Source of the DNA: an uncultured Acidimicrobiales bacterium
GTDB taxonomy: Bacteria; Actinomycetota; Acidimicrobiia; Acidimicrobiales; SZUA-35
Assembly (NCBI GenBank): GCA_963723995.1
Contig: CAVRSZ010000007.1
Location: 557,580-621,579, forward strand
DNA: 64,000 bases
Direction of reading: 5' to 3'
Shown here: positions 3,767 to 41,535 of the stretch, piece by piece
Position numbering within the stretch: the stretch's first letter is position 1
Layout: every line of letters begins with the position of its first letter
Translations under genes and position numbers: made by a program
The notes under the pieces: generated by a model
Database searches by the model: none
Told to the model about the DNA's origin: nothing
Seen by the model: the letters and a program-made list of their open reading frames with translations, nothing else

Positions 3767-4562
3767 ATGGGCCCCGTGGTCGCCAGCAGGCTCGACGGTC
3801 AGGTCGCTTACGTGACGGGAGCCAGCCGTGGTATAGGCCAGTTCGTTGCAAGCCAATTGGCCAACGCTGGTGCCACGGTCGTAGGCATCGCGCGATCGAT
3901 CGAGAGTCTGACAGGTGGGGGTCGAGCGTGCGGATGTCAGCGACCCGGAACAGATCGGATCTGCCTTCGAACGAGCCATCGACAGGGTCGGTCCCCCAGA
4001 CCTCGTCCTGACGTTCGCTGAGGTCGCTGAAGCACTCGGGCCGATCCACACCGTCGACGTGGATCAATGGTGGCGAGCGGTTGAGATCGACCTACGTGGA
4101 ACGATGCTCACCGTCCGCGAAGCGCTCAAGACCATGCTTCCCGTCGGCGCCGGTCGTGTGGTGACGGTCTACGGCAACCTCGGCGACCGCCAAGGCACGA
4201 ACGTGTCAGCCTTCGCCGGTGCGAAAGCTGGGATCGCCAGGTTGACGGAGATGGCAGCAGCCGAAGTGGCTGGGACCGGGGTCGTTGTTCTCGGTATCCA
4301 CCCCGGTTTCGTCCGCACCCCAATGACCGAGGCACTAGCGTTTAGCGAGGCAGGTACTACCTGGCTCCCATCATTTGGCGCCCGGGCCGAGGATCGATGG
4401 GGTGGAGCCGAGGCTGCTGCCGGCCTCGTTCTCCGAGTCGCATCCGGTGAAGCCGATGAACTATCGGGACGCATTCTGAGGGTCAACGACGACATCGCCC
4501 GCTTGGTCGACCAGTCGAACGAGAACTCGGACCACCGCCGACTTCGTCTCGATTTGGACTAG
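3767..4562 (+). pseudogene. short-chain dehydrogenase/reductase (SDR), frameshifted
   Basis: N-terminal Rossmann motif VTGASRGIG is in ORF 3767-4021. The rest (ADVSDPEQI...VVTVYGNLG...NVSAFAGAKAG...IHPGFVRTPM) is in ORF 3915-4562, in another frame. The junction lies at a G-run near 3914-3922. The usual catalytic Tyr position reads Phe (SAFAGAK). Confidence 0.7.
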
Positions 4563-9663: not shown

Positions 9664-10449
9664 TTAGCTGGTCTCCTTCGGGTTGGGGTTGGTGGCGGCG
9701 AGTTCGAGGCCGTTGTGTTCGCGTAGACGCCAGGACGGGCCTTTGATGTTGAACACGATGGCGTTGTGCATGAGCCGGTCGAGGATGGCAGCGGCGACGA
9801 CGGCGTCACCGAACACGGTCCCCCAGTCGGGCAGGCCCCGGTTGGTGGTCACCAACGTCGGATGCCCTTTCTCGTAGCGGGTGTTGACGACCTCGAAGAA
9901 CACGGCGGAGGCGTCGCTTGATCGCATTGGTAGCAGTCCGACATCGTCGATCACCGAGACGGTCGGCGCGGTGTAGGTCTTCATCTTGGTGGTCAGGTGC
10001 CCGTCGTTGCTGGCTTTGACCAGTGTTTTGGCGAGGGCGTCGGCGGTGGTGAAGTAGCCCCGGTAGCCGGCCTCGACCGCCAACGTCGCCAATGCGACGG
10101 CGAGGTGGGTTTTCCCGCAGCCTGGCTGACCGAGGAACAGGATTGGACGGTTCTCGTCGATGAACCGGAGGGTGGCGAGGTCTTCGACGAGTTTGCGGTC
10201 GACACCGGGTTGGAAGTCGTAGTCGAACTCCTCGATCGACCGGCGGAACGGGAACCGTGCGTAGCGCAGACGTGCTGCCAGGCGCCGGTCCCGATCGGCG
10301 GTTGCTTGTTCGGCGACGAGGCGTGCCAGGTAGTCGATGTGGGTCCAGTCCTCGAGCCGGGCCTGTTCGGCCAGGGTCGCGAACGATGCCTGCGCGGCGG
10401 TGAGGTTGAGGTAGCCGAGGTCGGCTTTGATCTGCTCGTAGAGACTCAT
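9664..10449 (-). CDS. istB: IS21-family helper ATPase IstB
   Basis: 261 aa. Walker A is FLGQPGCGKTHLAVAL, Walker B is VSVIDDVG, and the conserved C-terminus is DRLMHNAIVFNIKGPSWRL. Its start overlaps the istA stop. Confidence 0.9.
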   Translation of the reverse strand: MSLYEQIKADLGYLNLTAAQASFATLAEQARLEDWTHIDYLARLVAEQATADRDRRLAARLRYARFPFRRSIEEFDYDFQPGVDRKLVEDLATLRFIDENRPILFLGQPGCGKTHLAVALATLAVEAGYRGYFTTADALAKTLVKASNDGHLTTKMKTYTAPTVSVIDDVGLLPMRSSDASAVFFEVVNTRYEKGHPTLVTTNRGLPDWGTVFGDAVVAAAILDRLMHNAIVFNIKGPSWRLREHNGLELAATNPNPKETS

Positions 10450-11817
10450 GCTCCGACCTCCCCGTCATCGTTGATGTCGAGGGGGTAGCGGGCAGCGAGG
10501 TCGGGTGGTTCGACGTCGAACCCGTCCCCCAGCTCGAGGCGGCCTTGTTCGGCTTTGTCGATGGTGTCGGTGATGAGACGCAGCGCTGGCCGGACCGGTT
10601 TGTCGGCCATGGCCGCGGTTTCGGCTTGGCGCCGGTGTGTCGGGTCCCAGACATCGACGTTGGTGCCGGCGACCAGGGTGTGGGTGGCGATGATCTTCCC
10701 GGCCCAGCGGACTTCGAATCGGGGGCTGTCGACCGGTCGTCGGATCTCGACTTTGTGGCCCAGCACGTTGGTCGGGACCGAGTAGCGGGACCCTTCGACC
10801 GAGATGAACGGCAGGATGTTGTGGACTCGGCGGGTCTCGACGTAGTCGGTGTCGAACCGGTCCTTGGGCAACGACGCGAGGAAGCTCCGCTCGAGGGTGA
10901 GTCGTGCCGCTGGGGCTTCACCGGTGGTGCGGGACGCAATGGCGTGGACACGTTCGTCGAGCCAGGAGGCGGCACGCCGGTTGAGTTCGGCGATGTCGGT
11001 GGGGATCCCGTCGATTTCGACCTCGGGCAGGAACGTTTCCTGGAGTTGACGGAACGGCCTTTCGACCTTGCCTTTGCGTTTCGCGTCACGGGCCTTGCAC
11101 GCAGTGATCGCCGTCGAATGATGCGCAGCAAACCCGACCGCCGGCGGATGCAACACGAACCGGACGCCCTGGGATCGGCCGAGAGCGCCCATGCGGTCGG
11201 TCCGACACGCCGCGGGGACACCGCCCGATGCGTGTCGAAGAAGCGGGCCATGCCCTCGAAGGTGTGATGCTGATCCTGCGAGGTGGTGAACCACCAGATC
11301 CGCTGCCGACTCCAGCACAAGATCATCCCGAAACAGAACAACGGCGCCGACCAACCCCAACGGGCCGCCCAATCACTCGAGATCGCAGAAATCGAATTGG
11401 GCTTCCTCCCCCGGGTCAGTGTGGATCGGGACCGACACCCGATCAGCGGCCCGGAACCTCGGACCCCGCACGACACGAAGTTGGCGGGTCACCGTCGAGT
11501 AACCGCCATCGAACCCTTCCGAACAGAGGCGGTGGAACACGCTGATCCCGAGCAGTCTCGGCCACTTCATCAACAGCTCATCGATCCGGGACTGCCAATG
11601 CTGGTTCATCACCAACACCTCATCCGGCACCGCCCGCCGTCGCCGGCGGGCCCTCAGCAGCGAGATATCTGGCGATCGTGGCCGGATGAAAACCGGTCTC
11701 CTCGCCGATCTCCTTGTTCGTCCAACCCTGTTTCTTCAATTCTTCAATCTTCACGTACGTCTCCTGGTTCATCATGGAGCCGGCTCCTCTGGCATGTCGT
11801 GCTTGGTCGCTCGACAC
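10446..11817 (-). pseudogene. istA: IS21-family transposase IstA, three frameshifts
   Basis: The HTH part (YVKIEELKKQGWTNKEIGEETGFHPATIARYL) is in ORF 11620-11817. The next part is in 11373-11630. DWAARWGWSAPLFCFGMILCWSRQRIWWFTTSQDQHHTFEGMARFFDT is in a third frame. The catalytic/C-terminal part (GGVPAACRTDRMGALG...KARDAKRKGKVERPF...) is in 10446-11372. Confidence 0.8.
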
Positions 11818-11936: not shown

Positions 11937-12645
11937 CACATCCGACGAGGTGCAAGAGCAGGTCAAGAAGACCTCCTGCACCTGGAACACCAACACCGAC
12001 GGCTCCATCGACGGCCGGTTCCACCTTGACCCGCTCTCAGCGACCGCGGTCGGCACCGCGCTGGGTGATGAGATGCAGCGACTATTCCGCCAACAATCCG
12101 AAGGCGACGGCAAGGCTGACACCCCCAACCGGCGGCGGGGCCAAGCCCTCATCGGCCTGATCGTCGGTGGGGCTGAAGCCCCGGGGTCGGCCACCACCAC
12201 CCCGCTGGTGAACCTGGTGATCGGTCAGAAGGTCTTGGAGAACTTCCTGGAGCGGTACCTGGACCCGGGCACCCCGCTCGTACCGATCGATCGGGATGAT
12301 CCCGATTACCGGTGTGAACGCATTGATGGCACACCCATCCATCCTGATCTCGCGTTTGTGGCCACGGCGGTGGCCGAGTTCGAACGGATCGTGCTCGATG
12401 AACGATCCCGGGTGATCGACATGTCGGTCAAAGCCCGGGGGTTCCCGGATTGGATGAAACGGGCCTTACTGATCGAAGCCAGAGGCAGATGCCGAACCCG
12501 GGGCTGTGATTCGCCGTATCACTGGCTGCAAGTTGATCATGTCGAACCCCATTCGAAGGGTGGTGCAACGTCGCTCGCCAACGGTCAGATCCTGTGCGAC
12601 CCGGACAACAAATGGAAGCGCGACCACGTACAGACCGTGGCCTGA
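11937..12645 (+). pseudogene. DUF222/HNH endonuclease gene, 3-prime half
   Basis: Continues in frame from 9582 once the IS and one CACAC copy are removed (..WLINHTTSDEVQEQVKK..). The C-terminus RGCDSPYHWLQVDHVEPHSKGGATSLANGQILCDPDNKWK is an HNH nuclease motif. Confidence 0.75.
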
Positions 12646-13115
12646 CGGCACTCCGCGCCGCTCCACATCTGCACCTTGAAAACCGAATAGACCCGGGCCG
12701 AGGCCGGCCGCCGGGAACGGCATCAACCTTGGGGCTGGACACCCCGGCTGACTGCATCCCCATGCCAGGACTGACCCGAAGTCCAAAACCAACGGGGCTC
12801 AGGCGCCGGGCCAAAAACCAGCCGGCTGTTGCGACCTATGCGAGCCACGTCAACAGTGTGGGTGACCGCCACTCGGCGTCACGGTCGTCGCTCGAGCCAC
12901 GCCACCGCCGCTACCAGCTGGCCCGGCATCCACAACAGGACGGCCGAAACCGCAAACACCTTTCTCACCTCTGCAACCGTTAGCAGCTGGGAAGAAGCTG
13001 ACGGAAACCGTCGGGTAGCGGTTCGCCCGCCACCACCGGATCGTAGGACGATGACGCGGAGGCGTGGGGGATGCCGCGTCACGAGGCTGTGAAGAAGAGC
13101 ATGCCATTGTTGATG

Positions 13116-14846
13116 TTACTGGTGTGCTCGTTCGAACTCGCCGAGCGCAGTTCGGGCCAGGCTCCGCCGCTCCTGGAATTCCCTCTGCACCGATGGGCTG
13201 TCTCGAGGTGCGAGACGCCTGTCCGGCCCGAGGACGGCTGCCGGCACCTCGAACCGGTAGACGAACTCATCGCAGGCGTCCTCCATGCTCACCCCGGGCC
13301 TTGTCAACACCGAATTCACCCGCTTGTCGTAGGGGGCCGAGTGGAGTTCATGGACCAGATAGGCCATCTGGGCGTCGAACCGGAAGAGGATCCCGGTATC
13401 GAGAACCTGGCCCTGGAATGGATGAGTGAAGAGGTTGCTTCGACGCGGTTCGGACGTCCACTGGGCGAGTCCGACCCCCGGCGCCCCGGGTCCCTGTCTC
13501 GTGGCCCGGTTGCGGTCCCTGACCTGTTCCGGCGTCCAGGTCCGAGGGTTGCCATCGAAGTCCGGCGATCGCAGTGGAGTGTCCGCTCTACTCCCCTCCA
13601 GACGGTTGGGCATCACGCCCGATTCCTTCATGAGGTTTCCCACCACCCCGGCGGCCGCCTCCTTGGAGTAGCCATAGGTCGAGGTGAGCAGATCCATGGC
13701 GAGAAGGCGCCGCGTGGCCGCGCCGACCTGCGACCAGTCCTGGGCGATGGCGGCGTCGGCCGGCGGCTCCTCGGGCGTCGGAGACGGGCCGGCAATGGCC
13801 GGGCCGAGGAAGTGGGCGTTGACCCAGGCCGGACCTGAAGTAGTGGCGATTTCCCGCCACCGGCCCGCTCCGATCATGGCCACCAGACCGGTGGCGGCGA
13901 CCGGTGTGCCGGCTTCGAGGGTTAGGAGCACGGCGTTGCCGGTACCGGGCCCGAACCGAACATTCAGGCGGTCCCCGGGAGCGACCCTGACCGGAAAGGT
14001 CCCTGCATCTTCGTCCCAGAACCGGCACAGGAACCGCTCGTTCACCCAGCCCCGCCGGGTCTCCCCCAGCTTCACCTCCCGCCATGGGGAAGAGCCGACC
14101 AGAACAGGGCCGGAGCCGGCGACCTCGATGTCCTTCTGCCCGCTGGCAAAGGTTCCCACGATGTCGTTGGCCACACCCGGCCCGCCCCGACAGTTGAGGT
14201 GATCGTCGGGCCCGACGTTGTTGACCATGTAACGGTGCTCGGCCGTTCCGACCGGGTGCTCGCCCGGTACGCCGATTCCATCGTTACCGATGCCGAGTAG
14301 CCGGTCGATGGGGATGAGGCCGGGATCCCAGTGGTCGTTCTCGGGCACGTGCTGGTGCCCACACCAGCCGTTGAACGAGTTCCACTGGGCTGTGGTCATG
14401 CGGGCAGCTCCGTTGATGCCGAATGCCGCCGGTCCCCGGAAGGCAAACGGCGCCACCCGTCTCACCCCGGTCTTGTCCTCCACCCAACGCATCCATCGGG
14501 CCAGCTCCACAAGTAGTGGATCCGAGAAGGACGATGCGTTCCTGGCCCGGCCCACGATCTCGATCTGGATGGCATTGGCACGATTCGTCTGCACCCCGCC
14601 AGGCGAGTTACGTAGGGCCCGTGCTGCTTTGGCAATCGTGATGTGTTGGTAGATCTCCACCTTCGGGCCCTGGTGGGTGATCGTGAAATGGGGAAAGGAC
14701 TTGTGGCCGAAGTACGTCGACGGTGCCGGCGTGAACGTGTCGGACTCTGTGGTGTGGAGTACACCCCGGAACGGGTTTCCCTTGAATGCGCCACCGGTCA
14801 GCGGTGAGCGGTTCACACGCGCTGGCGGGTATTCCGGCAGTGACAT
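13116..14846 (-). CDS. modular cell-wall hydrolase: amidase_2 (PGRP-type) + two SH3b-like repeats + phage-tail-lysozyme-like domain
   Basis: 576 aa with no signal peptide. The N-terminal block is VLHTTES...NAIQIEIVG...GHQHVPENDHWDPG (N-acetylmuramoyl-L-alanine amidase signature). Two repeats end in GWVNERFL and AWVNAHFL. After a Pro-rich linker, the C-terminal part is AAAGVVGNLMKESGVMPN...GVGLAQWTSEPRRSNLF. Confidence 0.7.
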   Translation of the reverse strand: MSLPEYPPARVNRSPLTGGAFKGNPFRGVLHTTESDTFTPAPSTYFGHKSFPHFTITHQGPKVEIYQHITIAKAARALRNSPGGVQTNRANAIQIEIVGRARNASSFSDPLLVELARWMRWVEDKTGVRRVAPFAFRGPAAFGINGAARMTTAQWNSFNGWCGHQHVPENDHWDPGLIPIDRLLGIGNDGIGVPGEHPVGTAEHRYMVNNVGPDDHLNCRGGPGVANDIVGTFASGQKDIEVAGSGPVLVGSSPWREVKLGETRRGWVNERFLCRFWDEDAGTFPVRVAPGDRLNVRFGPGTGNAVLLTLEAGTPVAATGLVAMIGAGRWREIATTSGPAWVNAHFLGPAIAGPSPTPEEPPADAAIAQDWSQVGAATRRLLAMDLLTSTYGYSKEAAAGVVGNLMKESGVMPNRLEGSRADTPLRSPDFDGNPRTWTPEQVRDRNRATRQGPGAPGVGLAQWTSEPRRSNLFTHPFQGQVLDTGILFRFDAQMAYLVHELHSAPYDKRVNSVLTRPGVSMEDACDEFVYRFEVPAAVLGPDRRLAPRDSPSVQREFQERRSLARTALGEFERAHQ

Positions 14847-14910: not shown

Positions 14911-15759
14911 GTGGAGGAACCAAAGGGGCCAATCGTCATGTCGGATGCAGCGAATTCGCCCGATGACACGGCGTCGGCGCCGCAACAGCCATGGTGGCAG
15001 CGGCTGGGTTTCTGGGTAGGGGTCTTTGCCTTCGGCATCGTTCTCTCCGGATTGATCGTCGCCTTATGGAACGCCGTGCTCGACAGAGGCCGGGACGAGG
15101 AGATCATCACCGTCCTCCTGGCCACCATGTTGTTGCTGTTGCTCGTGACGTTCGCCCTGGTGGCGGTGGGTTTCAAGCGGGCAGGCCTCGCCGTTCCGGA
15201 TCAGGCGCTGGGACTGCCCCAGGGCAGCGTGCGGGCCCTGATCGCGTTCGTCCTGCTGCTCATTTTCTCGATGCTGGCGATCTTCTTGTTCGCCGGGGTG
15301 GACAGCCTCACCGAGGAGATCGAAGGGGTCTCCCCCGCCCAGTTCGAGGGCCTCGATCTGGCCGACGTGGCCGGCGCTCAAGCGGTGCGAGACGACGATG
15401 GCACCATCGTCGAGTACACCGTCACGCTACGACGACCGAACGCCGCTCAAGTCGATCTAGCGAAGCAGCTCACGACCGCCATGATCACGTTGATCACCGC
15501 CATCTCCGCCTTCTACTTTGGTGCCCGCACCAGTACGACATCGACGGATGTCCTCGCTCACCGTGTCTTCGGGCTCGATGCCCACAACGAGTTCGCGGAG
15601 GCCCCACAGCCGGCTGAATCGGCAGAGCCACCCCCGTCGCCGGCGGCCTCTGAAAAGCATCCCGAAGAGTACGAGGTACCCGAGGACTACGAGGTGCTGG
15701 AAGGGCATCCGCTCGACGAGCCCGATGACATAGGCGAGGCCGGCAACACGGTGGGTTGA
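14911..15759 (+). CDS. hypothetical membrane protein (about 4 TM, acidic C-terminal tail)
   Basis: 282 aa with TM-like stretches (LGFWVGVFAFGIVLSGLIVALW, ITVLLATMLLLLLVTFALVAVGF, ALIAFVLLLIFSMLAIFLFAGV, AMITLITAISAFYFG). Divergent from the hydrolase gene. Confidence 0.5.
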   Translation: MEEPKGPIVMSDAANSPDDTASAPQQPWWQRLGFWVGVFAFGIVLSGLIVALWNAVLDRGRDEEIITVLLATMLLLLLVTFALVAVGFKRAGLAVPDQALGLPQGSVRALIAFVLLLIFSMLAIFLFAGVDSLTEEIEGVSPAQFEGLDLADVAGAQAVRDDDGTIVEYTVTLRRPNAAQVDLAKQLTTAMITLITAISAFYFGARTSTTSTDVLAHRVFGLDAHNEFAEAPQPAESAEPPPSPAASEKHPEEYEVPEDYEVLEGHPLDEPDDIGEAGNTVG

Positions 15760-15806
15760 CCGACGACGCGACCAAGACGGAGAAGTCACAGATTTCGTGT
15801 CCGAGA

Positions 15807-16790
15807 TCAGCAGACGGCAGCGTTGTTCCAGCGAGTGTCCTCGAAGATCCGATCGCCGTGGTCGCCCCGCAGGATCCGCTCCCGAGCCTGGAGCCACAGT
15901 GCCTGCCAGCGTGACCAATCTCGGAGTTCGGACTCGGGATGAAACCGGCTGCGGGCCACAAACCCCGGGAACGCCGGCCGCCCCGTCGGGTGACCGGTCG
16001 GTGAGTAGCGCAGATCCATGCTCCAACGAATGGCCGACGATCGGTTTGGCCGCGAGCAGTGGACATTCAGTTTGTCGAACAGGATGATGCCACCCCTGGC
16101 CATCGGTAGCGGTTGCTGTTCCATCCCGGCCAGGGCGGCGGCAGGCACGTTGGGCTCGGAGGCCAGTTCTGCGTTGGCACAGTGAATCTGTGGGCCGAGC
16201 CGATGTGATCCCGGGATGGAGACGAGGCACCCATTGGTCTCGTCGGCGTCGCTCAGGGCCACCCACACGGTGACGATCGGGGTGTCATCGGCCTCGGGCA
16301 GTAGGGCGACGATGTCCTGGTGCCATGTGGTCGACCCGACGTTGGAGTGGACCTTCAGGTCACCATCGATACCGGCGATCGGGGGCTTGATCCGCATTTG
16401 CTGCACCGGATTCGACAGGATCTCGGGACCGATCACCGACTCGACCACGTCGAGGATCCGGGGATGACGCAGCAGGTCGAACACCGCCGGCCCGGTGTGG
16501 ATCTCGTAGCGGTCCGGATCGACGCGGCCGTTGATCAGAGGCAGCGAGATGTTGAAGTACCGGTGGAATTCCGGTTCGACTCGAAGCCCGGCCAGGAACC
16601 GCTCGGTGAAGTTGCCGGCAGGCCGAGCCTCCAGTAGCCCGTCGGCCACCAACCGACCGAGCTGGTCGTCGACGAGCTGGTCGTACTCGGCCGTGATGGG
16701 GGCAAGGTCGTCGTCGGACAGGACTCCCGGAACTGGAAGGAAGCCGTCGCGACGGAACTGCTCGAGTTGAGCCTCGTTGAGCCCGTTCAT
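15807..16790 (-). CDS. phytanoyl-CoA dioxygenase (PhyH) family Fe(II)/2-oxoglutarate oxygenase
   Basis: 327 aa. N-terminus is LNEAQLEQFRRDGFLPVPGVLS. The metal motif is TTWHQDI (HxD), with a distal His in IPGSHRLG and RWSMDLRY. Confidence 0.75.
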   Translation of the reverse strand: MNGLNEAQLEQFRRDGFLPVPGVLSDDDLAPITAEYDQLVDDQLGRLVADGLLEARPAGNFTERFLAGLRVEPEFHRYFNISLPLINGRVDPDRYEIHTGPAVFDLLRHPRILDVVESVIGPEILSNPVQQMRIKPPIAGIDGDLKVHSNVGSTTWHQDIVALLPEADDTPIVTVWVALSDADETNGCLVSIPGSHRLGPQIHCANAELASEPNVPAAALAGMEQQPLPMARGGIILFDKLNVHCSRPNRSSAIRWSMDLRYSPTGHPTGRPAFPGFVARSRFHPESELRDWSRWQALWLQARERILRGDHGDRIFEDTRWNNAAVC

Positions 16791-16796
16791 CCCGCC

Positions 16797-16946
16797 TTAC
16801 CTCCGACCTCGAACGACCACTTCGGCCCCCGGGGCCTCCGGCTCGTCATCGATCCAGGCCCGCACCGCCAACCGGTAGTCGTTGCGCAACAGGCTTGACG
16901 CCAGTTCGTGTCCCACGTTTCCAAGACCGATAAACCCGACGTTCAC
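16797..16946 (-). pseudogene. 49-codon remnant of an NAD-binding 3-hydroxyisobutyrate/6-phosphogluconate dehydrogenase-type N-terminus
   Basis: My translation is VNVGFIGLGNVGHELASSLLRNDYRLAVRAWIDDEP...(stop). It has the GFIGLGNMG-type dinucleotide-binding start but stops after 49 codons, 7 nt before the PhyH ATG. Confidence 0.4.
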
Positions 16947-17445
16947 CGAACCCCTTTCCTTTACCCACTCGGTGGTCCCTTCGAGACCTCTGACTGATGA
17001 TCGTAAACACCGTCGGAGGGCGAAGGAAGTGAAATCTTGGTGGCCTGAAGCGGCAACTCCTACCGGTTGTTGGGATCGCCACCCCGGCCGTCACGGCTGG
17101 GACCACCAGCAGCCGCGAGTCGACGGTGGCCAACGAGGTGACCCGATCCGGGGCCGGCCCGGCAGCCGAACGGGGAACGATTCGTCCCCCACCGGATCGG
17201 GCAGTTGCAGGAAGAGCTGGCCTCCACTGAAGCCGTTCCGGAACGTTCCCCGGGCCGACATCGAGATGCTGCTCCCTTCCACCGAGGTCCGGTTTCCGAC
17301 CTATCGACGCCGTCATCACGGAGTCCCCGCCCTGGTGTCGGGCCTCGTCGTGCTCACAACCAAATTGCCGCCGACCACCGGATTGATCGCCGAGACCCGG
17401 TCAGGTTGCCTGGCCATCGCCGGGCGACCGACAATGTGATGAGTC

Positions 17446-18075
17446 ATGGGCTGTGCGACGTTTCGCTGCTACGGAGAGCTGATCGACTTCCTGTCCGACG
17501 AGACCTACCTGCGGTCGGTGACCTTCGATGATCCGCCGAGCGTCAAGGATCGAATCGAGGCGAGCGGGGTCCCCCCATCGCCGAGCCGGTAGGAGAAGTC
17601 GACCGGCCGGCCATCGACCACAATGAGATCAACCTCGGTGTGGGTCAACGTGTATCCGGTGTTCAGATCGCTGGAAACCGGATTCAGTCTCCGTCCCGAC
17701 CCACCGGTCGGCCGCTTCGTCGTGGACGTGAACCTGGGCAAGCTGGCCAAGTATCTGCGTTTGGTGGGATTCGATGCGGTCAGTGACGGCGCACTCCAAG
17801 ACAGCGATCTCGCCCACATCGCAGCGGAGGAGGACCGCATCCTCCTCACCAAGGACCGCAATCTGCTCAAGCGGCGGATCGTCGTCCACGGCTATGTCGT
17901 GCGGGCGGTCCTCCCGGCCGACGAGTTGGTCGAGGTCGTCCAAAGATTCGGGCTCGCCAAGTCAGTGCGACCGTTCGCCCGCTGTATGGAATGCAACGGG
18001 AAGATCGTCCCCGTGGCCCAGAGCGACCACCTCGATTCCGTGGTGGCCAGGGTGCAGTCCGAGACCTGGCCGTAG
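17446..18075 (+). pseudogene. Ub-Mut7C + Mut7-C (PIN-like) RNase gene disrupted by a 68-bp internal inversion
   Basis: 17446-17574 encodes MGCATFRCYGELIDFLSDETYLRSVTFDDPPSVKDRIEASGVP. The expected continuation HTEVDLIVVDGRPVDFSYRLGDG is encoded on the opposite strand at 17642-17575. 17643 onward encodes VNVYPVFRSLE...RFVVDVNLGKLAKYLRLVGFD...LLTKDRNLL...CMECNG, in the same frame as the first part. Confidence 0.8.
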
Positions 18076-18254
18076 TGGCCAGGGCGGAGGGATCCCGGAC
18101 ATGAGTGAGCGGCTTCCGGCCCCGTAGCCGACGCCGCCGGTCGTCGTTCGCATCCCGGACGGGTCCTGTTCGGACCCGCCGCAATCCCCAGAGTCTTTTG
18201 GCCCTACCGGCATGCCCCGAGCTGCTTGATGTTGAAGGTACAAGGAGTACCTCC

Positions 18255-19763
18255 ATGGGCGTGTCGGATCACACGATCATACGGAAGCCGGCCTTCAGGG
18301 TGGGCATCCGGGCCAAACTGGCCACCGTCACGGTTCTGGTGCTGCTGGTGTCGATCGTGGCGGCGGTGGTGCCCGCGCCGACCGCTGCTGCTCCGGGAAA
18401 ACCGGTGGTGTACTTCACCTTCGATGACGGCCCGGACAGTTTCGTCACAGACCGGGTGCTCAACACCCTGAACCAATACGGGGCCAAGGCCACGTTCTTC
18501 GTGGTCGGCAGTCGCATCAACAGCTATCCCTCCGTCGCCCGCCGCATCGTGGCCGGCGGCCACGCCATCGCCAATCACTCCTACACCCATCCCACTCTCA
18601 CCGCCCTGACCGACGCCTCGGTGCTGAGCCAGTTCACGCGGACCAGTGCTGCTATCACCGACGCGACCGGGGTGGTACCGACCTGCTACCGGCCCCCTTA
18701 TGGGGCGGTCAACGCCCGGGTCCACAGCCTGGCCGTACAGGCCGGTTTGCCCAATGCCGGCTGGACTGCCGGTTACTCCAACAGCCACTGGGGACTGTGG
18801 GATATCGATACGAGGGACTGGGAGCTCGGTTTCAGCCGTACCTGGTACGAGCTCTCCAAGGTGTCGGCCGGTGACGTGGTGCTGATGCACACTCTCAAAT
18901 CGTTCTCGGCCGACATCTTTGCCCAGTGGATGGCCCAGAACGCGTACCGATTCGACTTCCAACCCCTCCCGGGGTGCAGAGCCGGGACCCAACCCCCGAC
19001 GCCCACGCCAACACCCACACCAACCCCCACACCCTCGCCGACAACCCGACCCACACTCCGACTGGGATCAACCGGACCCGCCGTCCTCGAACTCGAACAA
19101 CGCCTCACCCAACTCGGCTACAACCCCGGCACCCCCAACACCACCTTCGACACCACCACCCGCAGCGCCGTCATCGCCTTCCAAACCACCGCCCGCATCA
19201 GCCGCGACGGCATCGTCGGACCCATCACCTGGTCCAAACTCGACAACGCCACAACCACGCCCACGCCAACACCCACACCAACCCCAACCCCCTCACCGAC
19301 AACCCGACCCACACTCCGACTGGGATCAACCGGACCCGCCGTCCTCGAACTCGAACAACGCCTCACCCAACTCGGCTACAACCCCGGCACCCCCAACACC
19401 ACCTTCGACACCACCACCCGCAGCGCCGTCATCGCCTTCCAAACCACCGCCCGCATCAGCCGCGACGGCATCGTCGGACCCATCACCTGGTCCAAACTCG
19501 ACAACGCCACAACCACGCCCACGCCAACACCCACACCAACCCCCTCACCGACAACCCGACCCACACTCCGACTGGGATCAACCGGACCCGCCGTCCTCGA
19601 ACTCGAACAACGCCTCACCCAACTCGGCTACAACCCCGGCACCCCCAACACCACCTTCGACACCACCACCCGCAGCGCCGTCATCGCCTTCCAAACCACC
19701 GCCCGCATCAGCCGCGACGGCATCGTCGGACCCATCACCTGGTCCAAACTCGACAACGCCTGA
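18255..19763 (+). CDS. secreted polysaccharide deacetylase (NodB domain) with three C-terminal peptidoglycan-binding (PG_binding_1) repeats
   Basis: AAGGAG RBS before ATG 18255. Has an N-terminal TM/signal segment. NodB motifs are YFTFDDGPD and IANHSYTHP. Then comes 3x (TP-linker + LRLGSTGPAVLELEQRLTQLGYNPGTPNTTFDTTTRSAVIAFQTTARISRDGIVGPITWSKLDNA). Confidence 0.85.
   Translation: MGVSDHTIIRKPAFRVGIRAKLATVTVLVLLVSIVAAVVPAPTAAAPGKPVVYFTFDDGPDSFVTDRVLNTLNQYGAKATFFVVGSRINSYPSVARRIVAGGHAIANHSYTHPTLTALTDASVLSQFTRTSAAITDATGVVPTCYRPPYGAVNARVHSLAVQAGLPNAGWTAGYSNSHWGLWDIDTRDWELGFSRTWYELSKVSAGDVVLMHTLKSFSADIFAQWMAQNAYRFDFQPLPGCRAGTQPPTPTPTPTPTPTPSPTTRPTLRLGSTGPAVLELEQRLTQLGYNPGTPNTTFDTTTRSAVIAFQTTARISRDGIVGPITWSKLDNATTTPTPTPTPTPTPSPTTRPTLRLGSTGPAVLELEQRLTQLGYNPGTPNTTFDTTTRSAVIAFQTTARISRDGIVGPITWSKLDNATTTPTPTPTPTPSPTTRPTLRLGSTGPAVLELEQRLTQLGYNPGTPNTTFDTTTRSAVIAFQTTARISRDGIVGPITWSKLDNA
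18999..19763 (+). repeat. three tandem coding repeats (periods 258 and 252 bp), cores identical at DNA level
   Basis: The string CCGACAACCCGACCCACACTCCGACTGGGATCAACCGG recurs at 19038, 19296 and 19548. The ~210-bp cores read identically by eye, and only the TP-linker length differs. Confidence 0.9.
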
Positions 19764-19787
19764 CAGGACGAGCGCTCGGGCAGGGGC

Positions 19788-20822
19788 CTACACCAGGGGA
19801 CGCGTCCCTTCGTGTGTGAGCGGCCTGATCATCAGGTCCCTGGCAACATCGGCGACCGGTTTGTCCTCGTAGAGCACGGCATACACCTGGTCGCAGATGG
19901 GCATCTCGATACCAACGGACTCCGAGAGCTGCTTCACGGCCTTGGTCGTCTTCACTCCCTCGGCCACCATGTTCATCTCGGCTTGGATGTCGTGCAGGGA
20001 ACGGCCGCGGCCCAACTCGACACCGACGGTGCGATTCCGGGAGAGCCCCCCGGTGCATGTCAAGATGAGGTCACCCATGCCCGACAGACCGGCGAAGGTG
20101 AACGGGTCACCCCCGAGGGCGACACCGAGACGCGAAATCTCGGCCAGACCTCGCGTCATGAGGGCGGCCATGGTGTTGTGACCATAGCGGAGGCCTTCCA
20201 CGACTCCGGCCGCCAGCGCAATGACGTTCTTCAGCGCTCCCCCCAATTCCGCCCCGGTGACATCGGGGCTCGTGTACACGCGAAACACCTCGGAGGAGAA
20301 CAACTCCTGGACGAGTCGGGTGCGGTCCACATCGGCGCCGGCGGCGACCACGGCGGTGGGGTGGCGGGCTGCGACCTCCCTGGCGAACGACGGGCCGGAC
20401 AGGGCCACGATACGACTCGCTGCTCCTTCGCCGAGCACGTCGGCGAGGATCGCGGACGGCGTCGCCAGCGTGTCGATCTCGATGCCCTTCGAGACCGTGA
20501 CGACCAAGGCCTCAGCCGGCACCACGTCGGCCACGCCCGACCAGACCGCCCGCACATGCTGGGTCGGGACCGAACTAACGATCACTTCGGCTTCCCGAAT
20601 CGCACGCCTCAAGTCGCCCGTCGCCGACAGCGAGTCATCCAATGTGACATCCGGCAGAAAGATAGGGTTCTCCCGTTCGGTGTTGACGCCCTCGACCACC
20701 TCGGGCTCTCGAGCCCAGATCGTCGTCGGCTCACCCTTGGCCGCCAGATGGTTCGCCAGGGCCGTTCCCCACGAACCGCCTCCGACGACCACCGTCGGCT
20801 TTGCACGTTCCATGGTGGTCAA
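19788..20822 (-). CDS. gpsA: NAD(P)H-dependent glycerol-3-phosphate dehydrogenase
   Basis: 344 aa. VVVGGGSWGTALANHLA, ENPIFLPDV, GALKNVIALAAG and NMVAEGVKT are canonical GpsA blocks. Confidence 0.9.
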   Translation of the reverse strand: MTTMERAKPTVVVGGGSWGTALANHLAAKGEPTTIWAREPEVVEGVNTERENPIFLPDVTLDDSLSATGDLRRAIREAEVIVSSVPTQHVRAVWSGVADVVPAEALVVTVSKGIEIDTLATPSAILADVLGEGAASRIVALSGPSFAREVAARHPTAVVAAGADVDRTRLVQELFSSEVFRVYTSPDVTGAELGGALKNVIALAAGVVEGLRYGHNTMAALMTRGLAEISRLGVALGGDPFTFAGLSGMGDLILTCTGGLSRNRTVGVELGRGRSLHDIQAEMNMVAEGVKTTKAVKQLSESVGIEMPICDQVYAVLYEDKPVADVARDLMIRPLTHEGTRPLV

Positions 20823-25028: not shown

Positions 25029-25552
25029 GGCCTACCTCGCACCATCAAGATGACTTCGATACTAGGCAGTCGGCGGGTCAATGGGTGTATTGAGCATGCA
25101 TCACTGATCGGAAACGGTTCGCTCCACGCCTGGGGGTGATGGATGCTCCACGATGCCTGCGTCGACTACTTCGACCGCGATCTGGAACCAGGCCCGTCAC
25201 GTCCACTCAAACCTGCGATCGTTCCCGGTATCCCCCGGAGGACCCGTACCGCCAAATCGGCCGATTTCGTTCTCCTGCTCGGTCCGATCGTCCCCGTGCG
25301 ATCCATTGTGGGAGTTGCGCTGGACGTCGGGTACTGCGGTCGTGATCGACGAGATCGTCCGGTTCGAAGGTCCGTCCGATCCGGGCGACGAGACGATCCC
25401 GGACACCTTCACCAGTCGATGCGGGACAAGACGCAACCTATGGCCCGGGACAGGCCCCACTAAAGGGAGAGCCCGCCACAATCCGACCGGCGCCGGTCGA
25501 CAACGTTTCGGCAAAGCCGAGACTCTGCTGCGCCGCCCCAGGCGGCAAAACG

Positions 25553-25595
25553 TGGACTGTACTGAACTTGAACCTGTGACCTCACGCGTGTGAGG
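25553..25595 (-). repeat. 43-nt copy of the 3-prime half of tRNA-Val(CAC) (att-like, distal)
   Basis: TGGACTGTACTGAACTTGAACCTGTGACCTCACGCGTGTGAGG matches 41462-41504 at 39/43. It covers the discriminator through the anticodon loop only, and no 5-prime half is present. Confidence 0.75.
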
Positions 25596-26165
25596 GCTCA
25601 GACCCTGCTCGAGCGTGCGAAATCGGCAGGAGTACCGCCGCTCGATCGGCAACCGACCACTCGTATCCCCGGGACTCGCCCACGAAGCATCGACCTGAGT
25701 GTTCGAGACCCAACGGCGAAGGCCCCCGGGCGTCGGTCAATACGTCGACAGCCGAGGACCCCGATGCCCGAGCCGATCGCACACGAACCTCCCGGAACGC
25801 TATGCCGCCTCTCGAACTGGTGGCAGCCCGGTCGAGCCACTGGCGAGGGCTTTCCACGGAGCGTCCATCCCGGTCGAGTTCGACGAGAGATGCAGTCAGG
25901 TCCCGAACTGCGGCAAGCCATCATCATCAACGCCCCAGCCCGTGCTTGGCCGGCTGGGAGCGAGAACGCGGCATCAGTCAGGGCCGCACGCCGCCAGCCT
26001 GATGATTCCCCAAGCCGATTAGGTCATCGGGGCTATGCAACCTTCGAGTCGCCGTGTCGACATACCGGGAGTATCGGTTGGCCAAGCATCCAAGGCCACT
26101 GACAAGGAACCGGACGGCGCAGACCATCAGACCGTGCGTTGTGGGACCGATGAGACGAGGACACC

Positions 26166-29102
26166 ATGAACATCTCCTATTCCAGCGGAAGACAGCCGGT
26201 TCAATCGTCACGGGGCTGGCAATGGCGGGCCGGCCTCGCCTTCATGGCCGCAGCATTGGTGGCATCAGCCGCCTTGACCGCCGGTCCGGCGAGCGCGACC
26301 GACCTCGACTCGATCGAGGCGTCCTTCCGCTCCCAGCAGGATGCGCTGGCCGAGCGACAGCTCCTGGAGCTGGCCCGGCTCGACAGCTACTGGGACCAGA
26401 AGATCTCGGAGCGTGAGGCTGAGGCGGCGGCCGAGCAGGCCGACCTCCAGCGCAGGCTCGACGCCGCCGTTGCCCCGGTGCTGGCCCAGCGCGACGACCG
26501 GCTGGCCGATGTGGAGGCCCGCCGACAGTCTGCGCTCGAGCTCGTCGATGAGGTGTACAGGACAAAGCGGGCCGAGAAGGAAGCATGGGTGGCTGAGCAC
26601 TCGTCGGATCTGGCGGCAGACGCCAAGCCGTTGTCGGACGACGCGGCGAAGATCGTCGAGGCCGAGATGAAGGAGGCCCGCAAGGCCGAAGAGGAGCCGA
26701 TCAAGGTGGCGGAGAAGGACACCATCGATCCACTGAAGGAGCAGTACAAGGCGGTCAAGGATCACGCGGAGACCGACCGGAAGGCGCTCGAGGCTGATCA
26801 GAAGACGTCTGCGGCGGAGCTGGCCGAATCCTACGAGCGGCTTGTCGCCGCCACAGAGACCGAGTCGGAGGATCGGCTCGCCGATCTTGAAGACGAGGCC
26901 GACAAGCTCGAGTTCGACTACAAATCAACCAAGGATGAACTGACCACCCGGTCCAAGGTCGAAATCGACGAGGCCAAGGACGCGGGCGAGGACACCGGAG
27001 CGATGAGCGAAGCCTGGAAGGCCCGCCTGACCGAGCTGAAGGCGCTCTACGAGGAGCAGTCGAACGACTTGGAGGAGCAGTTCGACACGACGAAGACGGC
27101 GACGAAGGCCCAACTGAGCGCCCTGAAGGCAGACAACGATGCGCAAGCCAAGTACCAGGACGAGGTCGACGATGCTCGGCTCGACAACTTCGATGCCGAC
27201 ACCGACGAGCTGTTGCTGTCGCTCACCATCGTCATCAAGGAGACCGAGGCGGCGTTCAAGGTCCAGCTGGACGACCTCAAGGCCATCTATGAGGTGAAGG
27301 AAGCCGTTGCCGTCTCGGAAACGGACGCCTTCCGTTCGGCACTCGAAGGCATCGTCGACCTCGTCGACAAACAGCACGCCGATGCCCGCAAGAGCGTCGA
27401 GGACAATGCCAAGAATGAGCACGACATCATCGACGTGCAGACGGAAACCGAGATCGTGCTCGTCGAGGCGCCGTTCCAGCGGCGGCTCAACGACAGCCGG
27501 GTTTCCCTCGAGAGCGACATCGTCAACCTCAAAGCCGATCACGACAACGCCCGCTCGGCTCTGGAACGACGCCACCTACGTGAGGAACTGCTCGCCTCGA
27601 CCGACTACCAGATCCTGCGCACACGGACCAAGAAGTACCTTGACAGCGCTGCTGGGGCCACAGTCCCTCTCGACAACTTCTATGATCCGACAAGCGACAT
27701 CGGCTCCATGTTCAATGTGGCCAAGACCATCGGGGCCGACCACACGGCACTGACCGGCGCCGGGGTCAAGGTCGCCCTGCTCGACACCGGTGTGGCGCCG
27801 GTCAACGGTCTGGCCCAGGCGAATGTGGTTCTCGGTCCCGATTTCTCGTTCGAGGATCTCGACGACGACCTCCGAGGCATCGACACAAACGGCCACGGGA
27901 CCCATCTGGCCGGGATCATCGTCGGGTCCGATGATGCCTGGCTCGCCGGTGACCAAACCCGAACCGAGTCGCGGTCGCTGGGTATCGCACCCGACGCCGA
28001 ACTCGTCGCAGTCAAGGCAGCAACCGCCACCGGCGCCACCGACGTCTCCCAGGTCATCGCCGGGATCAACTGGATCATCCGCTACAACCAGGAGAACCCG
28101 ACGAGTCCGATCAGGGTGCTGAACCTGGCCTACGGCACCAACAGCGAGCAGGACTACTCGATCGACCCCCTGTCGTACGCCGTCGAGCGGGCCTGGAAGG
28201 CCGGAGTCGTGGTCGTTGTCGCCGCCGGCAACGAAGGCTGGGACTCTTCACACCTGACCAACCCGGGCCGAAACCCCTACGTGATCGCCGTCGGCGCTTC
28301 CCAAGCTGCCGGCAACAAGACGGTCGTCGCCGGGTATTCCTCGGAGGGCTCGCCGGATCGCGGTGTCGACCTCGTGGCCCCCGGCCGTTCCATCGTGAGC
28401 CTGCGCAATCCCGGCTCCTTCAGCGACACGGTCAACGGGCAGGGTCGGGTCGGCGACCGCCTGGTCCGGGGTTCGGGCACGAGCCAAGCCACAGCCGTGG
28501 TATCCGGCGCCGTGGCGCTACTGCTCGAAGACCGGCCCTCTCTCACGCCCGACCAGGTCAAGACCCTGCTCATGGCCACCGCCGATCCGATCGCCGACGG
28601 CGACCCGCGGGCCAACGGTGCCGGGGTTCTCGACATCGGAAAGGCGCTCGACACCGACACCATCTACAGCTCACCGCAGGCCTGGACGCCTTCGGACGGC
28701 TCGGGCAGCCTCGAAGCCGCCCGGGGCTCGAGCCACATCCCACTTGACGACGGCACCCTGCTCTTCGGAGACACCGACGTGTTTGGCAACACCTACGCCG
28801 ATGACGGCTGGGCCACCGATGAGTGGACGGGGCGGACCTGGCGGGCCGCCGGCTGGCGTGGACGGACGTGGCGAAGCGACAGCTGGGAGGGACGCAGCTG
28901 GCGGGGCGACAGCTGGTATGGCCGGAGCTGGCGCGACGACGGCTGGGTGGGACGCAGCTGGCGGGCGGAAGACTGGGAGGGACGGACCTGGCGAGCCGAC
29001 CGCTGGGAAGGACGGACCTGGCGCAGCGACGCCTGGGAAGGGCGCAGCTGGCGGGCCGAAGACTGGGAGGGACGGACCTGGCGAGGGTTTGGCTGCTTCT
29101 GA
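26166..29102 (+). CDS. secreted S8 (subtilisin-like) serine peptidase with ~450-aa N-terminal coiled-coil region and C-terminal Trp/Arg decapeptide repeats
   Basis: 978 aa. The signal-like N-terminus is WRAGLAFMAAALVASAALTAGPASA. A long E/K/D/A-rich helical region follows. The catalytic triad blocks are VALLDTGV (Asp), NGHGTHLAGII (His) and GSGTSQATAVVSGAVALL (Ser). The tail is 9-10 x [x-D/E-x-W-x-G-R-S/T-W-R], ending GFGCF. Confidence 0.85.
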   Translation: MNISYSSGRQPVQSSRGWQWRAGLAFMAAALVASAALTAGPASATDLDSIEASFRSQQDALAERQLLELARLDSYWDQKISEREAEAAAEQADLQRRLDAAVAPVLAQRDDRLADVEARRQSALELVDEVYRTKRAEKEAWVAEHSSDLAADAKPLSDDAAKIVEAEMKEARKAEEEPIKVAEKDTIDPLKEQYKAVKDHAETDRKALEADQKTSAAELAESYERLVAATETESEDRLADLEDEADKLEFDYKSTKDELTTRSKVEIDEAKDAGEDTGAMSEAWKARLTELKALYEEQSNDLEEQFDTTKTATKAQLSALKADNDAQAKYQDEVDDARLDNFDADTDELLLSLTIVIKETEAAFKVQLDDLKAIYEVKEAVAVSETDAFRSALEGIVDLVDKQHADARKSVEDNAKNEHDIIDVQTETEIVLVEAPFQRRLNDSRVSLESDIVNLKADHDNARSALERRHLREELLASTDYQILRTRTKKYLDSAAGATVPLDNFYDPTSDIGSMFNVAKTIGADHTALTGAGVKVALLDTGVAPVNGLAQANVVLGPDFSFEDLDDDLRGIDTNGHGTHLAGIIVGSDDAWLAGDQTRTESRSLGIAPDAELVAVKAATATGATDVSQVIAGINWIIRYNQENPTSPIRVLNLAYGTNSEQDYSIDPLSYAVERAWKAGVVVVVAAGNEGWDSSHLTNPGRNPYVIAVGASQAAGNKTVVAGYSSEGSPDRGVDLVAPGRSIVSLRNPGSFSDTVNGQGRVGDRLVRGSGTSQATAVVSGAVALLLEDRPSLTPDQVKTLLMATADPIADGDPRANGAGVLDIGKALDTDTIYSSPQAWTPSDGSGSLEAARGSSHIPLDDGTLLFGDTDVFGNTYADDGWATDEWTGRTWRAAGWRGRTWRSDSWEGRSWRGDSWYGRSWRDDGWVGRSWRAEDWEGRTWRADRWEGRTWRSDAWEGRSWRAEDWEGRTWRGFGCF
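28800..29084 (+). repeat. 30-bp-period coding repeat (W-x-G-R-S/T-W-R decapeptides)
   Basis: DDGWATDEWTGRTWR AAGWRGRTWR SDSWEGRSWR GDSWYGRSWR DDGWVGRSWR AEDWEGRTWR ADRWEGRTWR SDAWEGRSWR AEDWEGRTWR. Confidence 0.9.
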
Positions 29103-38394: not shown

Positions 38395-38651
38395 GCCGCT
38401 ACCACGTGGAGGTCGCGCGCCGTGCGGTGAAGTCGATCGCCAAGCTTCCACGAGCCGAACAGCAGAGAGTGCGGGCTGCGATTGATCTCCTCGCGGACGA
38501 ACCTCGCCCCCCGGGTTGCACCAAGCTTGCCGGGGAGGATTCGGTGTATCGAGTGCGTGTCGGCGACTACCGGATCCTCTACGAAGTCATCGATGCGCGC
38601 CTGGTGGTTCACGTCGTGCGAGTCGGCCATCGCCGTGACGTCTACCGGTAG
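38391..38651 (+). CDS. type II toxin, RelE/ParE family
   Basis: 86 aa. AKLPRAEQQRVRAAIDLLADEPRPPGCTKLAGEDSVYRVRVGDYRILYEVIDARLVVHVVRVGHRRDVY matches the RelE/ParE fold pattern. Confidence 0.8.
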   Translation: MSRYHVEVARRAVKSIAKLPRAEQQRVRAAIDLLADEPRPPGCTKLAGEDSVYRVRVGDYRILYEVIDARLVVHVVRVGHRRDVYR

Positions 38652-38858
38652 CGCCCCCACGCTCATTCGCAGTGGACTCATTACCGAGCGGCTTGGCCTG
38701 GCCGGATCGCCGGTTTGTCAGCGGCTCTTCGGCAGAGGGATGGGGACTCCTGCTGACATCTTGCCGGCCATCGCGGGCGCCGTGGATGCACGTCCGCGGA
38801 GCAGCAGGAGTAGACCGACAGTCGTGCTTGCCATGCCAGCGAGGACCCAGCCGGTTAA

Positions 38859-41461: not shown

Positions 41462-41535
41462 TGGACCGTACTGGACTTGAACCAGTGACCTCTCGCGTGT
41501 GAGGCGAGCGCTCTAGCCAACTGAGCTAACGGTCC
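41462..41535 (-). tRNA. tRNA-Val (anticodon CAC)
   Basis: The reverse complement folds as a 74-nt cloverleaf. Acceptor GGACCGT/ACGGTCC, D stem GCTC/GAGC, anticodon stem CTCGC/GCGAG with loop CTCACAC, T arm ACTGG-TTCAAGT-CCAGT, discriminator A. CCA is not encoded. Confidence 0.9.

Follow-up and report, generated by a model that had tools for sequence, protein, structure and literature searches.

A probably fixed, non-programmed 68-bp inversion in a decaying Ub-Mut7C/Mut7-C gene of an uncultured Acidimicrobiales bacterium

Why is a gene that is uninterrupted in its homologues read here as two short open reading frames (ORFs), with part of its coding sequence found on the opposite strand? The question is raised by the remnant of a Ub-Mut7C/Mut7-C gene, a putative RNA-binding or RNase gene, at positions 17446-18075 (+) of a DNA stretch of 64,000 nucleotides from an uncultured Acidimicrobiales bacterium. 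This whole stretch is referred to as the window. A sequence-only reading of the locus had claimed a 68-bp inversion within the coding sequence, at 17575-17642, and had offered three explanations for it: a template-switch or hairpin-mediated mutation, an assembly artefact, or a rare on/off switch for a potentially toxic RNase. The inversion itself stands, on the evidence of the ORFs, the translation of the minus strand and the matches in related loci, which for this segment are found in reverse orientation only. The likely reading is that the inversion is fixed and not programmed and that the gene, now decaying, was inactivated recently; the locus is most plausibly a pseudogene.

The + strand ORF at 17446..17592 encodes 48 amino acids, MGCATFRCYGELIDFLSDETYLRSVTFDDPPSVKDRIEASGVPPSPSR, and ends in a premature stop codon (TAG, 17590-17592). 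A second ORF of 150 amino acids at 17623..18075 (+) shares its frame. The minus strand of 17575-17642 encodes HTEVDLIVVDGRPVDFSYRLGD followed by 2 nt, corresponding to codons 44-66. Both the TAG and the fortuitous ATG at 17623 are the + strand reading of the flipped segment. This means that translation would meet the TAG at 17590 after 48 codons and that the downstream ORF would start at an ATG made by the flip. The coding sequence is thus split into 48 and 150 amino acids, whereas the homologues are uninterrupted proteins of 237-290 amino acids. The downstream frame is kept because an inversion leaves the length unchanged, which is trivial.

Flipping 17573-17644, 17574-17643, 17575-17642 or 17576-17641 gives one ORF of 209 amino acids, with an identical product each time. 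The position of the breakpoints is therefore ambiguous by a few bases, between a C-run at 17571-17576 and GGG at 17642-17644, and the C/G microhomology at the breakpoints in the window amounts to 3-4 nt.

The identity of the gene was evaluated with domain profiles before and after flipping, as the sequence-only reading had proposed for the restored protein. The score for PF14451 (Ub-Mut7C) rises from 28 bits unflipped, covering positions 3-45 of 81, to 78 bits flipped, covering positions 3-80 of 81, and PF01927 matches the flipped protein with E=1.5e-31 over profile positions 2-118 of 146, so that both expected families are found. The 5' part of the coding sequence (17446..17574, +; codons 1-43) holds the N-terminal half of the Ub-like beta-grasp domain; this part accounts for the 28 bits and has 80% forward DNA identity to the related loci L001, L002 and L084. 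A contiguous Ub-like domain is absent from the + strand, and becomes complete only upon flipping 17575-17642, apart from an Asp that is 95% conserved. The remainder of the coding sequence (17643..18075, +) comprises the end of the Ub-like domain, the Mut7-C core matched by PF01927, and the native C-terminus and stop codon. The N-terminal (PIN/TOPRIM-like) part of the Mut7-C core is present, with the invariant motifs GRFVVD.NLG and LLTKDR kept. Gene callers annotate this remainder as the 150-aa ORF starting at ATG 17623.

After flipping, domain order and sequence are alike those of Ubl-fused Mut7-C proteins such as Rv0579 of M. tuberculosis and TM_0779 of T. maritima, which combine PF14451 and PF01927 (PMC1779556, PMC11347159). 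The copy in the window differs in being interrupted, in having lost the Asp that is 95% conserved, and in retaining only the first half of a Cys4 zinc finger. Its sequence marks the locus as what is left of a Ub-Mut7C/Mut7-C family gene, not as a working member.

Comparison with related loci was carried out at both the protein and the DNA level. With the segment flipped, the closest intact homologues have 242-243 amino acids and 79-83% protein identity. In all homologues aligned, the HTEVDL...YRLGDG block occupies an identical position, as the sequence-only reading had assumed when it treated the block as part of the family at this place. In DNA comparisons, 17404-18026 is matched in forward orientation by four related loci (L001, L002, L084 and L085) with 78-80% identity. 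The same four loci match 17573/17587-17644 in reverse orientation only (blastn, 90-92% identity, E 1e-17 to 1e-25). These reverse matches of 58-72 nt sit exactly between the forward-matching flanks, and this describes an in-place reverse complement. Given such alignments, the reverse orientation of the segment is far beyond what could be expected by chance and cannot be a chance match.

Additionally, we have used a genome collection with 410 relatives of the gene, the best having 65% identity. All of the 80 retained from these 410 match the query as a single continuous stretch, and a sister strain is absent among the 410. Among 5.8 billion clustered proteins a 100%-identical intact protein was not found, the best full-length matches being those at 79-83%. 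A metagenome scan with a conserved 20-mer of the segment, CCGGTCGACTTCTCCTACCG, in either orientation gave one match, by chance, in an MFS transporter gene. Among homologues and loci, the best-named ones come from Acidimicrobiia MAGs; the G+C content of the window is 65%.

The inversion is not the only lesion in the gene. At the right junction (17641..17646), 6 nt, either GGGACC or GACCGG, have been lost compared to all close relatives in the DNA alignment. The relatives read GGC GAT GGG GAC CGG ATC GGC GTG TAT, and the flipped window reads GGC GAT GGG GTC AAC GTG TAT; the corresponding proteins are GDGDRIGVYPV and GDG--VNVYPV. The lost nucleotides are the codons of D67, which is the Asp conserved in 95% of 117 homologues, and of the next residue, and with them most of the right arm of a short inverted repeat, GGGGACC, is gone. 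These 6 nt were removed either in the inversion event itself or in another one at this place. At the left junction (17568..17576) the arm GGTCCCC is retained, followed by a C-run with two C beyond what a simple exchange would leave.

A separate lesion is a 99-nt in-frame deletion at 18026..18031, where positions 1132-1234 of L002 correspond to 18027-18030 of the window. It takes out VDHLLEPLT...C..C..YW.GSH.., comprising the residues between the two Cys pairs of the Cys4 zinc finger, the second pair and the motif after it. The residues lost include C215 and C218, which are 100% conserved, and W223, G225 and H227, which are 98-99% conserved. The zinc finger is consequently incomplete: it keeps its first Cys pair, CMEC, but has neither the second CxxC pair nor W.GSH. 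In MUT7-C the four Cys form a zinc finger that links the N-terminal part of the domain to its C-terminal part (PMC11347159). Because of the 6-nt loss and the 99-nt deletion, a normal protein is not regained by flipping the segment back. The sequence-only reading had called the inversion precise and restorable in frame; the 209-aa ORF is indeed restored, but with 6 nt and 99 nt missing it is not an intact family member. The lengths of both deletions are divisible by three, for which the chance expectation is about 1 in 9.

Two further run-level assemblies were used as an evaluation of the junctions. The exact 48-aa and 150-aa products were found on separately assembled contigs of ERR12037369 (4,309 bp) and ERR15459714 (1,649 bp), and on both contigs the ORFs are spaced by 30 nt, as in the window. 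The 48-aa product spans the left junction, and the 150-aa product starts within the flipped segment and spans the right junction. Since both split products were recovered, both junctions are reproduced and the contigs are contiguous through the site; the junction identity across assemblies is defined by exact protein products, that is, at the protein level rather than the nucleotide level. The 4,309-bp contig furthermore carries the 327-aa PhyH gene, the 655-nt upstream gap and a downstream gene 180 nt past the stop codon. One orientation is thus found in three separate assemblies. In the window itself, which comes from a 700,841-bp contig, the 150-aa product is identical to protein P0004.

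The DNA upstream of the gene is also rearranged. Between the PhyH gene (15807-16790, -) and the Mut7-C start lie 655 nt that harbour no intact gene and form a patchwork of fragments. These fragments in the upstream 'intergenic' DNA, as well as the two deletions, had been overlooked by the earlier reading. Next to the PhyH gene, at 16797..16946 (-), lies an orphan N-terminal fragment of 49 codons with the Rossmann motif VGFIGLGNVG, probably from an NAD-binding dehydrogenase; the match to PF03446 is weak (E=3.9e-4; at 20.9 bits it stays below the cut-off of 21). It is followed at 17063..17225 (+) by an inverted fragment of a DUF3754 gene, made up of 62 nt of its upstream region and its first 33 codons, as identified by tblastn (ERFVPHRIGQLQEELAS) and by a match to L002, in which positions 336-495 match 17224-17063 in reverse (78% identity, E=4e-32). 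A second DUF3754 pseudogene piece, corresponding to residues of about 182-235, occupies 17227..17388 (+) and matches PF12576 with E=3.5e-8 and the protein P0122 with 67% identity over 54 amino acids in tblastn. Codon 33 is thus joined straight to residue ~182, with about 150 codons deleted, and three-frame translation of the second piece reveals a +1/-1 frameshift pair.

At 17397 the sequence switches to the upstream region of Mut7-C. In L002, an intact DUF3754 gene is found on the opposite strand, divergent from Mut7-C, and homologues of this gene carry PF12576. In L002 the DUF3754 homology borders on the Mut7-C homology in the middle of a perfect 14-nt palindrome, GACCGGCGCCGGTC. Each of the two junctions in the window retains half of this palindrome (CCGGT...), and the two halves are in direct orientation, which an inversion with a break at the palindrome's centre would produce. 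DUF3754 and Mut7-C were also considered as a conserved gene pair lost together, and this was rejected: the two genes are adjacent only in L002, and the adjacency is absent from L086, L087 and 80 other loci.

A hairpin at 17403..17430 (+), 16-43 nt upstream of the ATG, is kept in the window and in three relatives. The consensus fold has -16.9 kcal/mol and 15 pairs, two of them with compensatory changes. Homology among the four loci begins just 5' of this hairpin, at about 17397-17404. Gene order differs among all relatives of the locus in the window. In L084 and L085, the 3' end of the gene found at 14911-15759 in the window adjoins Mut7-C directly, without PhyH, and in L001 the sequence of the GpsA side (19774-19979 in the window) lies downstream of Mut7-C, without the deacetylase gene. 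This variable context fits the published lack of a conserved neighbourhood for Ubl-Mut7-C genes (PMC1779556), and in this respect, too, the locus in the window resembles its family.

The timing of inactivation was addressed with substitution data. The dN/dS of the flipped gene in the window against its relatives is 0.19-0.25, compared to 0.16-0.25 among the relatives. In columns with at least 95% conservation, the window has one substitution (F8C), and other family members have a mean of 0.9. Neither dN/dS nor the deviations in conserved columns give a signal of relaxed selection; this points to structural lesions that are recent. Judged by these substitutions, the gene has been under purifying selection through most of its history and its lesions are recent. 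The relaxed-selection test is neutral on the status of the locus as a pseudogene.

Three other explanations of the split gene were weighed against this evidence. Small inversions can be produced by chimeric reads, and the orientation of the segment might accordingly be an artefact of sequencing or assembly. With both junctions matched at the exact-protein level in two other run-level assemblies, we regard such an artefact as extremely improbable, and this explanation of the earlier reading can be dropped on account of the identical split products, spacing and neighbours in the contigs of ERR12037369 and ERR15459714. A programmed, reversible inversion within the gene would make the segment an on/off switch for a potentially toxic RNase, and its sole support is that flipping turns an interrupted ORF into a continuous one and back. 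Programmed inversion switches have flanking inverted repeats of roughly 10-30 bp or more, a site-specific invertase encoded nearby, and both orientations coexisting; phase-variable inversions driven by an invertase include intragenic 'invertons'. Invertons resemble the present case in that a segment within a coding sequence alters the product when in opposite orientation. They differ from it in their long inverted repeats and their invertase gene: no inverted-repeat pair of at least 10 nt bracketing 17575-17642 was found, in agreement with what the sequence-only reading had stated on invertase-type repeats, and the about 30 predicted proteins scanned from 1303 to 41055 include neither a serine nor a tyrosine invertase. 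Nor is the exchange conservative, since a net 6 nt are missing on the right and the left C-run is irregular compared to all close relatives, a loss that a conservative recombinase would not cause. The 'on' state would still be without its zinc finger and hence non-functional, all three assemblies have the same orientation, and the protein database holds no identical intact protein. With the repeat, the invertase, the junction and the zinc finger all against it, a switch of this kind is scarcely credible.

A quite improbable alternative is that the gene has been remodelled rather than lost, and that the ATG at 17623 made by the flip allows expression of a stand-alone Mut7-C core of 150 amino acids, possibly together with the 48-aa peptide. 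The conserved N-terminal Mut7-C core is whole in this ORF (PF01927, E=6e-32), both deletions are in frame, damaging substitutions are not in excess, and prokaryotic MUT7-C is mostly a stand-alone protein (PMC11347159). However, the Ub-like domain is missing from this ORF and its zinc finger is halved: two of its four zinc ligands have been lost, along with the W.GSH motif that is 98-99% conserved. No purine-rich ribosome-binding site is found in the sequence upstream of ATG 17623 or of GTG 17638, the neighbouring genes are plainly dead, and a recent inactivation explains the lack of excess substitutions equally well. A fixed inversion in a recently inactivated gene therefore remains the preferred reading.

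How the inversion arose can be approached from the sequences flanking it. The left flank in the window is GGGGTCCCC, and three of the four relatives have GGGGACCGG immediately to the right of the segment. In the reconstructed ancestor these flanks contain an inverted repeat of 7 nt, GGTCCCC/GGGGACC, whose inner edges lie 0 and -2 nt from the segment's boundaries; the right arm of this repeat is taken from relatives that are only 80% identical and is not observed in the window. A repeat as good as the ancestral one is matched by 4% of random 68-nt placements, and the 6-nt repeat of L001 by 3%; in L002 and L084 the inverted repeat is only 5 nt and 3 nt, respectively. In described microinversions, the flanking inverted repeats measure 3-75 nt and their edges are no more than a few bases away from the boundaries (PMC8755829). 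[quoted passage not shown] The short inverted repeat gives modest support to a template-switch origin.

Two routes to the present arrangement may be proposed. One would be replication template switching, or MMBIR, between GGTCCCC on the left, which is kept, and GGGGACC on the right, which is largely deleted. The other would be two close double-strand breaks rejoined in the wrong orientation. A simple exchange at the repeat leaves a mismatch with what is observed, the left junction having 2 additional C and the right junction lacking 8 nt, for a net of -6. Because the junctions are imperfect, it has to be assumed either that slippage occurred in the C/G runs or that the ends of two double-strand breaks were processed, and slippage in these runs would be required under both routes. 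A hairpin or cruciform model was dropped for want of support, as the DNA of the ancestor and of the relatives folds no better than shuffled sequences (z -0.5 to +0.9). Among the three explanations of the sequence-only reading, a template-switch or hairpin-mediated mutation is the favoured one, with the qualification that a hairpin centred on the segment is not borne out by these z values. A quasi-palindrome at 17598-17618 lies at the exact centre of the flipped segment.

No paralogue that could have served as donor of the flipped segment was found in the window. The earlier statement that there is no recombinase gene nearby is correct for about 6 kb on either side; within the window as a whole there are mobile-element genes, namely IS21 istB (9664-10449) with an istA fragment (10446-11192), an HNH endonuclease (11950-12645) and an IS110 transposase (39745-41055), all of them at least about 5 kb from the flipped segment. 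The entire window was also screened for small inversions using a codon-usage model and pairs of ORFs in the same frame. This screen recovered the 68-bp case and otherwise gave antisense shadows and adjacent genes, being too noisy at the 60-nt scale.

The case resembles described microinversions with short inverted repeats (PMC5453318; PMC8755829) in being an in-place reverse complement of some tens of bases, in needing no dedicated enzyme and, if the 7-nt repeat of the reconstructed ancestor is right, in having the inner edges of an inverted repeat at the boundaries. The described cases are mostly from primate genomes and 17-33 nt long, whereas the present one is bacterial and has 68 nt. Furthermore, it is not 'pure', with 6 nt lost at one junction and a C-run 2 nt over a clean exchange, and it is located within a coding sequence with other rearrangements alongside. 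A second related class is that of bacterial quasipalindrome and spacer-inversion mutations, for which the Ripley model is cited in PMC5453318. These mutations share with the present case a replication-linked strand switching at inverted repeats by which a spacer can be inverted, and the larger neighbouring inversion in the window has a breakpoint in the middle of a perfect 14-nt palindrome. The classic cases are imperfect palindromes being corrected or short loops being inverted, in contrast to arms of ~7 nt and a spacer of 68 nt in the window, where moreover the predicted hairpin is no stabler than that of shuffled sequence.

It may also be asked whether all lesions were made together, in one replication accident with multiple template switches, instead of in separate events over time. 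In such an accident, 68 bp would have been inverted with a loss of 6 nt, and a further stretch of at least 334 bp with a break at the palindrome centre; internal stretches of ~470 bp and 99 bp would have been deleted, and a hairpin loop perhaps flipped. At least five structural lesions are found within about 1.3 kb, breakpoints coincide with a palindrome centre and with a short inverted repeat, and the point substitutions indicate no long period of relaxed constraint, which is in line with lesions that arose recently and within a short span. Against this, the two small frameshifts in DUF3754 are typical of gradual decay, the gene content is unlike in all four relatives and thereby suggests a long history of turnover, and relatives at 80% identity are unable to order the events. 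We therefore hold a single accident to be rather unlikely. If true, it would be a bacterial counterpart, at the kilobase scale, of the complex replication-based rearrangements of eukaryotes, in a wild uncultured actinobacterium.

The inversion is a known kind of mutation and reveals no new biological system. It provides a clean, cross-validated natural bacterial example of a microinversion, a class that is well modelled and has rarely been documented beyond primates and laboratory reporters in E. coli. At 68 bp it is longer than most described microinversions, and it occurs within a cluster of palindrome-associated rearrangements. Aligners and gene callers mistake microinversions for a frameshift or for two unrelated small ORFs, as happened here with split genes being called in three assemblies; such loci would be annotated correctly if pseudogene detection admitted local reverse-complement matches. 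The locus also presents a two-gene neighbourhood dismantled by non-homologous rearrangements with breakpoints at palindromes.

The apparently intergenic gap at 16791-17445, directly upstream of the Mut7-C gene (probably a recent pseudogene, at 17446-18075), was found to be a mosaic of gene pieces. One piece, from the 5' part of a DUF3754 (PF12576) gene, lies inverted at 17063-17225 and is fused to a second piece at 17227-17388, which corresponds to DUF3754 residues ~182-235 and contains a +1/-1 frameshift pair; about 150 codons are absent between the two. A possible orphan N-terminus of an NAD-binding dehydrogenase is found on the minus strand at 16946-16797.

Four related loci carrying intact Mut7-C genes (L001, L002, L084 and L085) were used for comparison, and the upstream neighbours of Mut7-C are different in all of them. 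In L002, where DUF3754 is intact and divergent from Mut7-C, the two genes are separated by a sequence containing a perfect 14-nt palindrome, GACCGGCGCCGGTC (L002 490-503). The centre of this palindrome is the breakpoint of a larger inversion in the window, and half of it is left at each of the two junctions, at 17060-17066 and 17397-17403. A comparison of the region 15782-17403 with L084 and L085 showed that Mut7-C is directly adjoined in both by the 3' end of the 14911-15759 gene. The PhyH dioxygenase gene (15807-16790), together with the patchwork, is an insertion with respect to these two loci.

A conserved hairpin is located at 17403-17430, 16-43 nt 5' of the Mut7-C start codon, with counterparts at ~186-213 in L001, ~504-530 in L002 and ~267-294 in L084, and homology between the genomes starts just 5' of it. 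This hairpin may serve as an operator, a 5'-UTR structure or a terminator. Its loop reads CATC in the window and GATG, the reverse complement, in L001 and L002, a difference that could stem from a tiny inversion of the spacer or merely from two substitutions. Furthermore, the hairpin 12-mer CCATCGCCGGGC (17414-17425) is identical in 11 of 12 positions to CCATCGCCGAGC (17575-17586), the first 12 nt of the 68-bp inverted segment inside Mut7-C, and in L001 and L002 the two corresponding places both have GGCGATGG, in which the core shared by the two window sequences is in the opposite orientation. The likeness between hairpin and inverted segment is probably a coincidence.

A separately assembled Logan contig of sequencing run ERR15459714 covers approximately 17380-19028. 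It begins ~17 nt 5' of the junction at 17397, where the DUF3754 fragment gives way to sequence from upstream of Mut7-C, and this starting point could reflect strain variation at the junction or simply low coverage. The other end falls within tandem repeats (18999-19760) of the polysaccharide deacetylase gene at 18255-19763. The end of this gene consists of three 258-nt units, each coding for a Pro/Thr linker and a PG_binding_1 domain, and as the units are 98% identical their expansion is very recent. At the corresponding position in L001 this gene is missing.

Mobile elements are also present in the window. An IS21-family element (9664-11630) has a seemingly intact istB (9664-10449), and its istA is probably truncated or split, since the only ORF corresponding to it is one of 248 aa with the Mu-transposase C-terminal domain (10446-11192). 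The window's single tRNA gene (41462-41535) is situated ~400 nt away from an IS110-family transposase gene (39745-41055). Additionally, an HNH endonuclease gene (11950-12645) adjoins a gene for a multi-domain cell-wall hydrolase of 566 aa (13116-14816) with Amidase_2, SH3 and phage tail lysozyme domains, and the gene that follows has a sub-threshold match to a phage tail chaperone. The region 11950-14816 may be a prophage remnant.

On our crude gene map several further gaps of 0.6-1.35 kb were seen, e.g. 25029-26243 and 38395-39744. A 917-nt gap holding no confident gene lies 5' of the short-chain dehydrogenase ORF at 3915-4562, which matches its Pfam profile only from position ~50-56 onward and may be another truncated gene.
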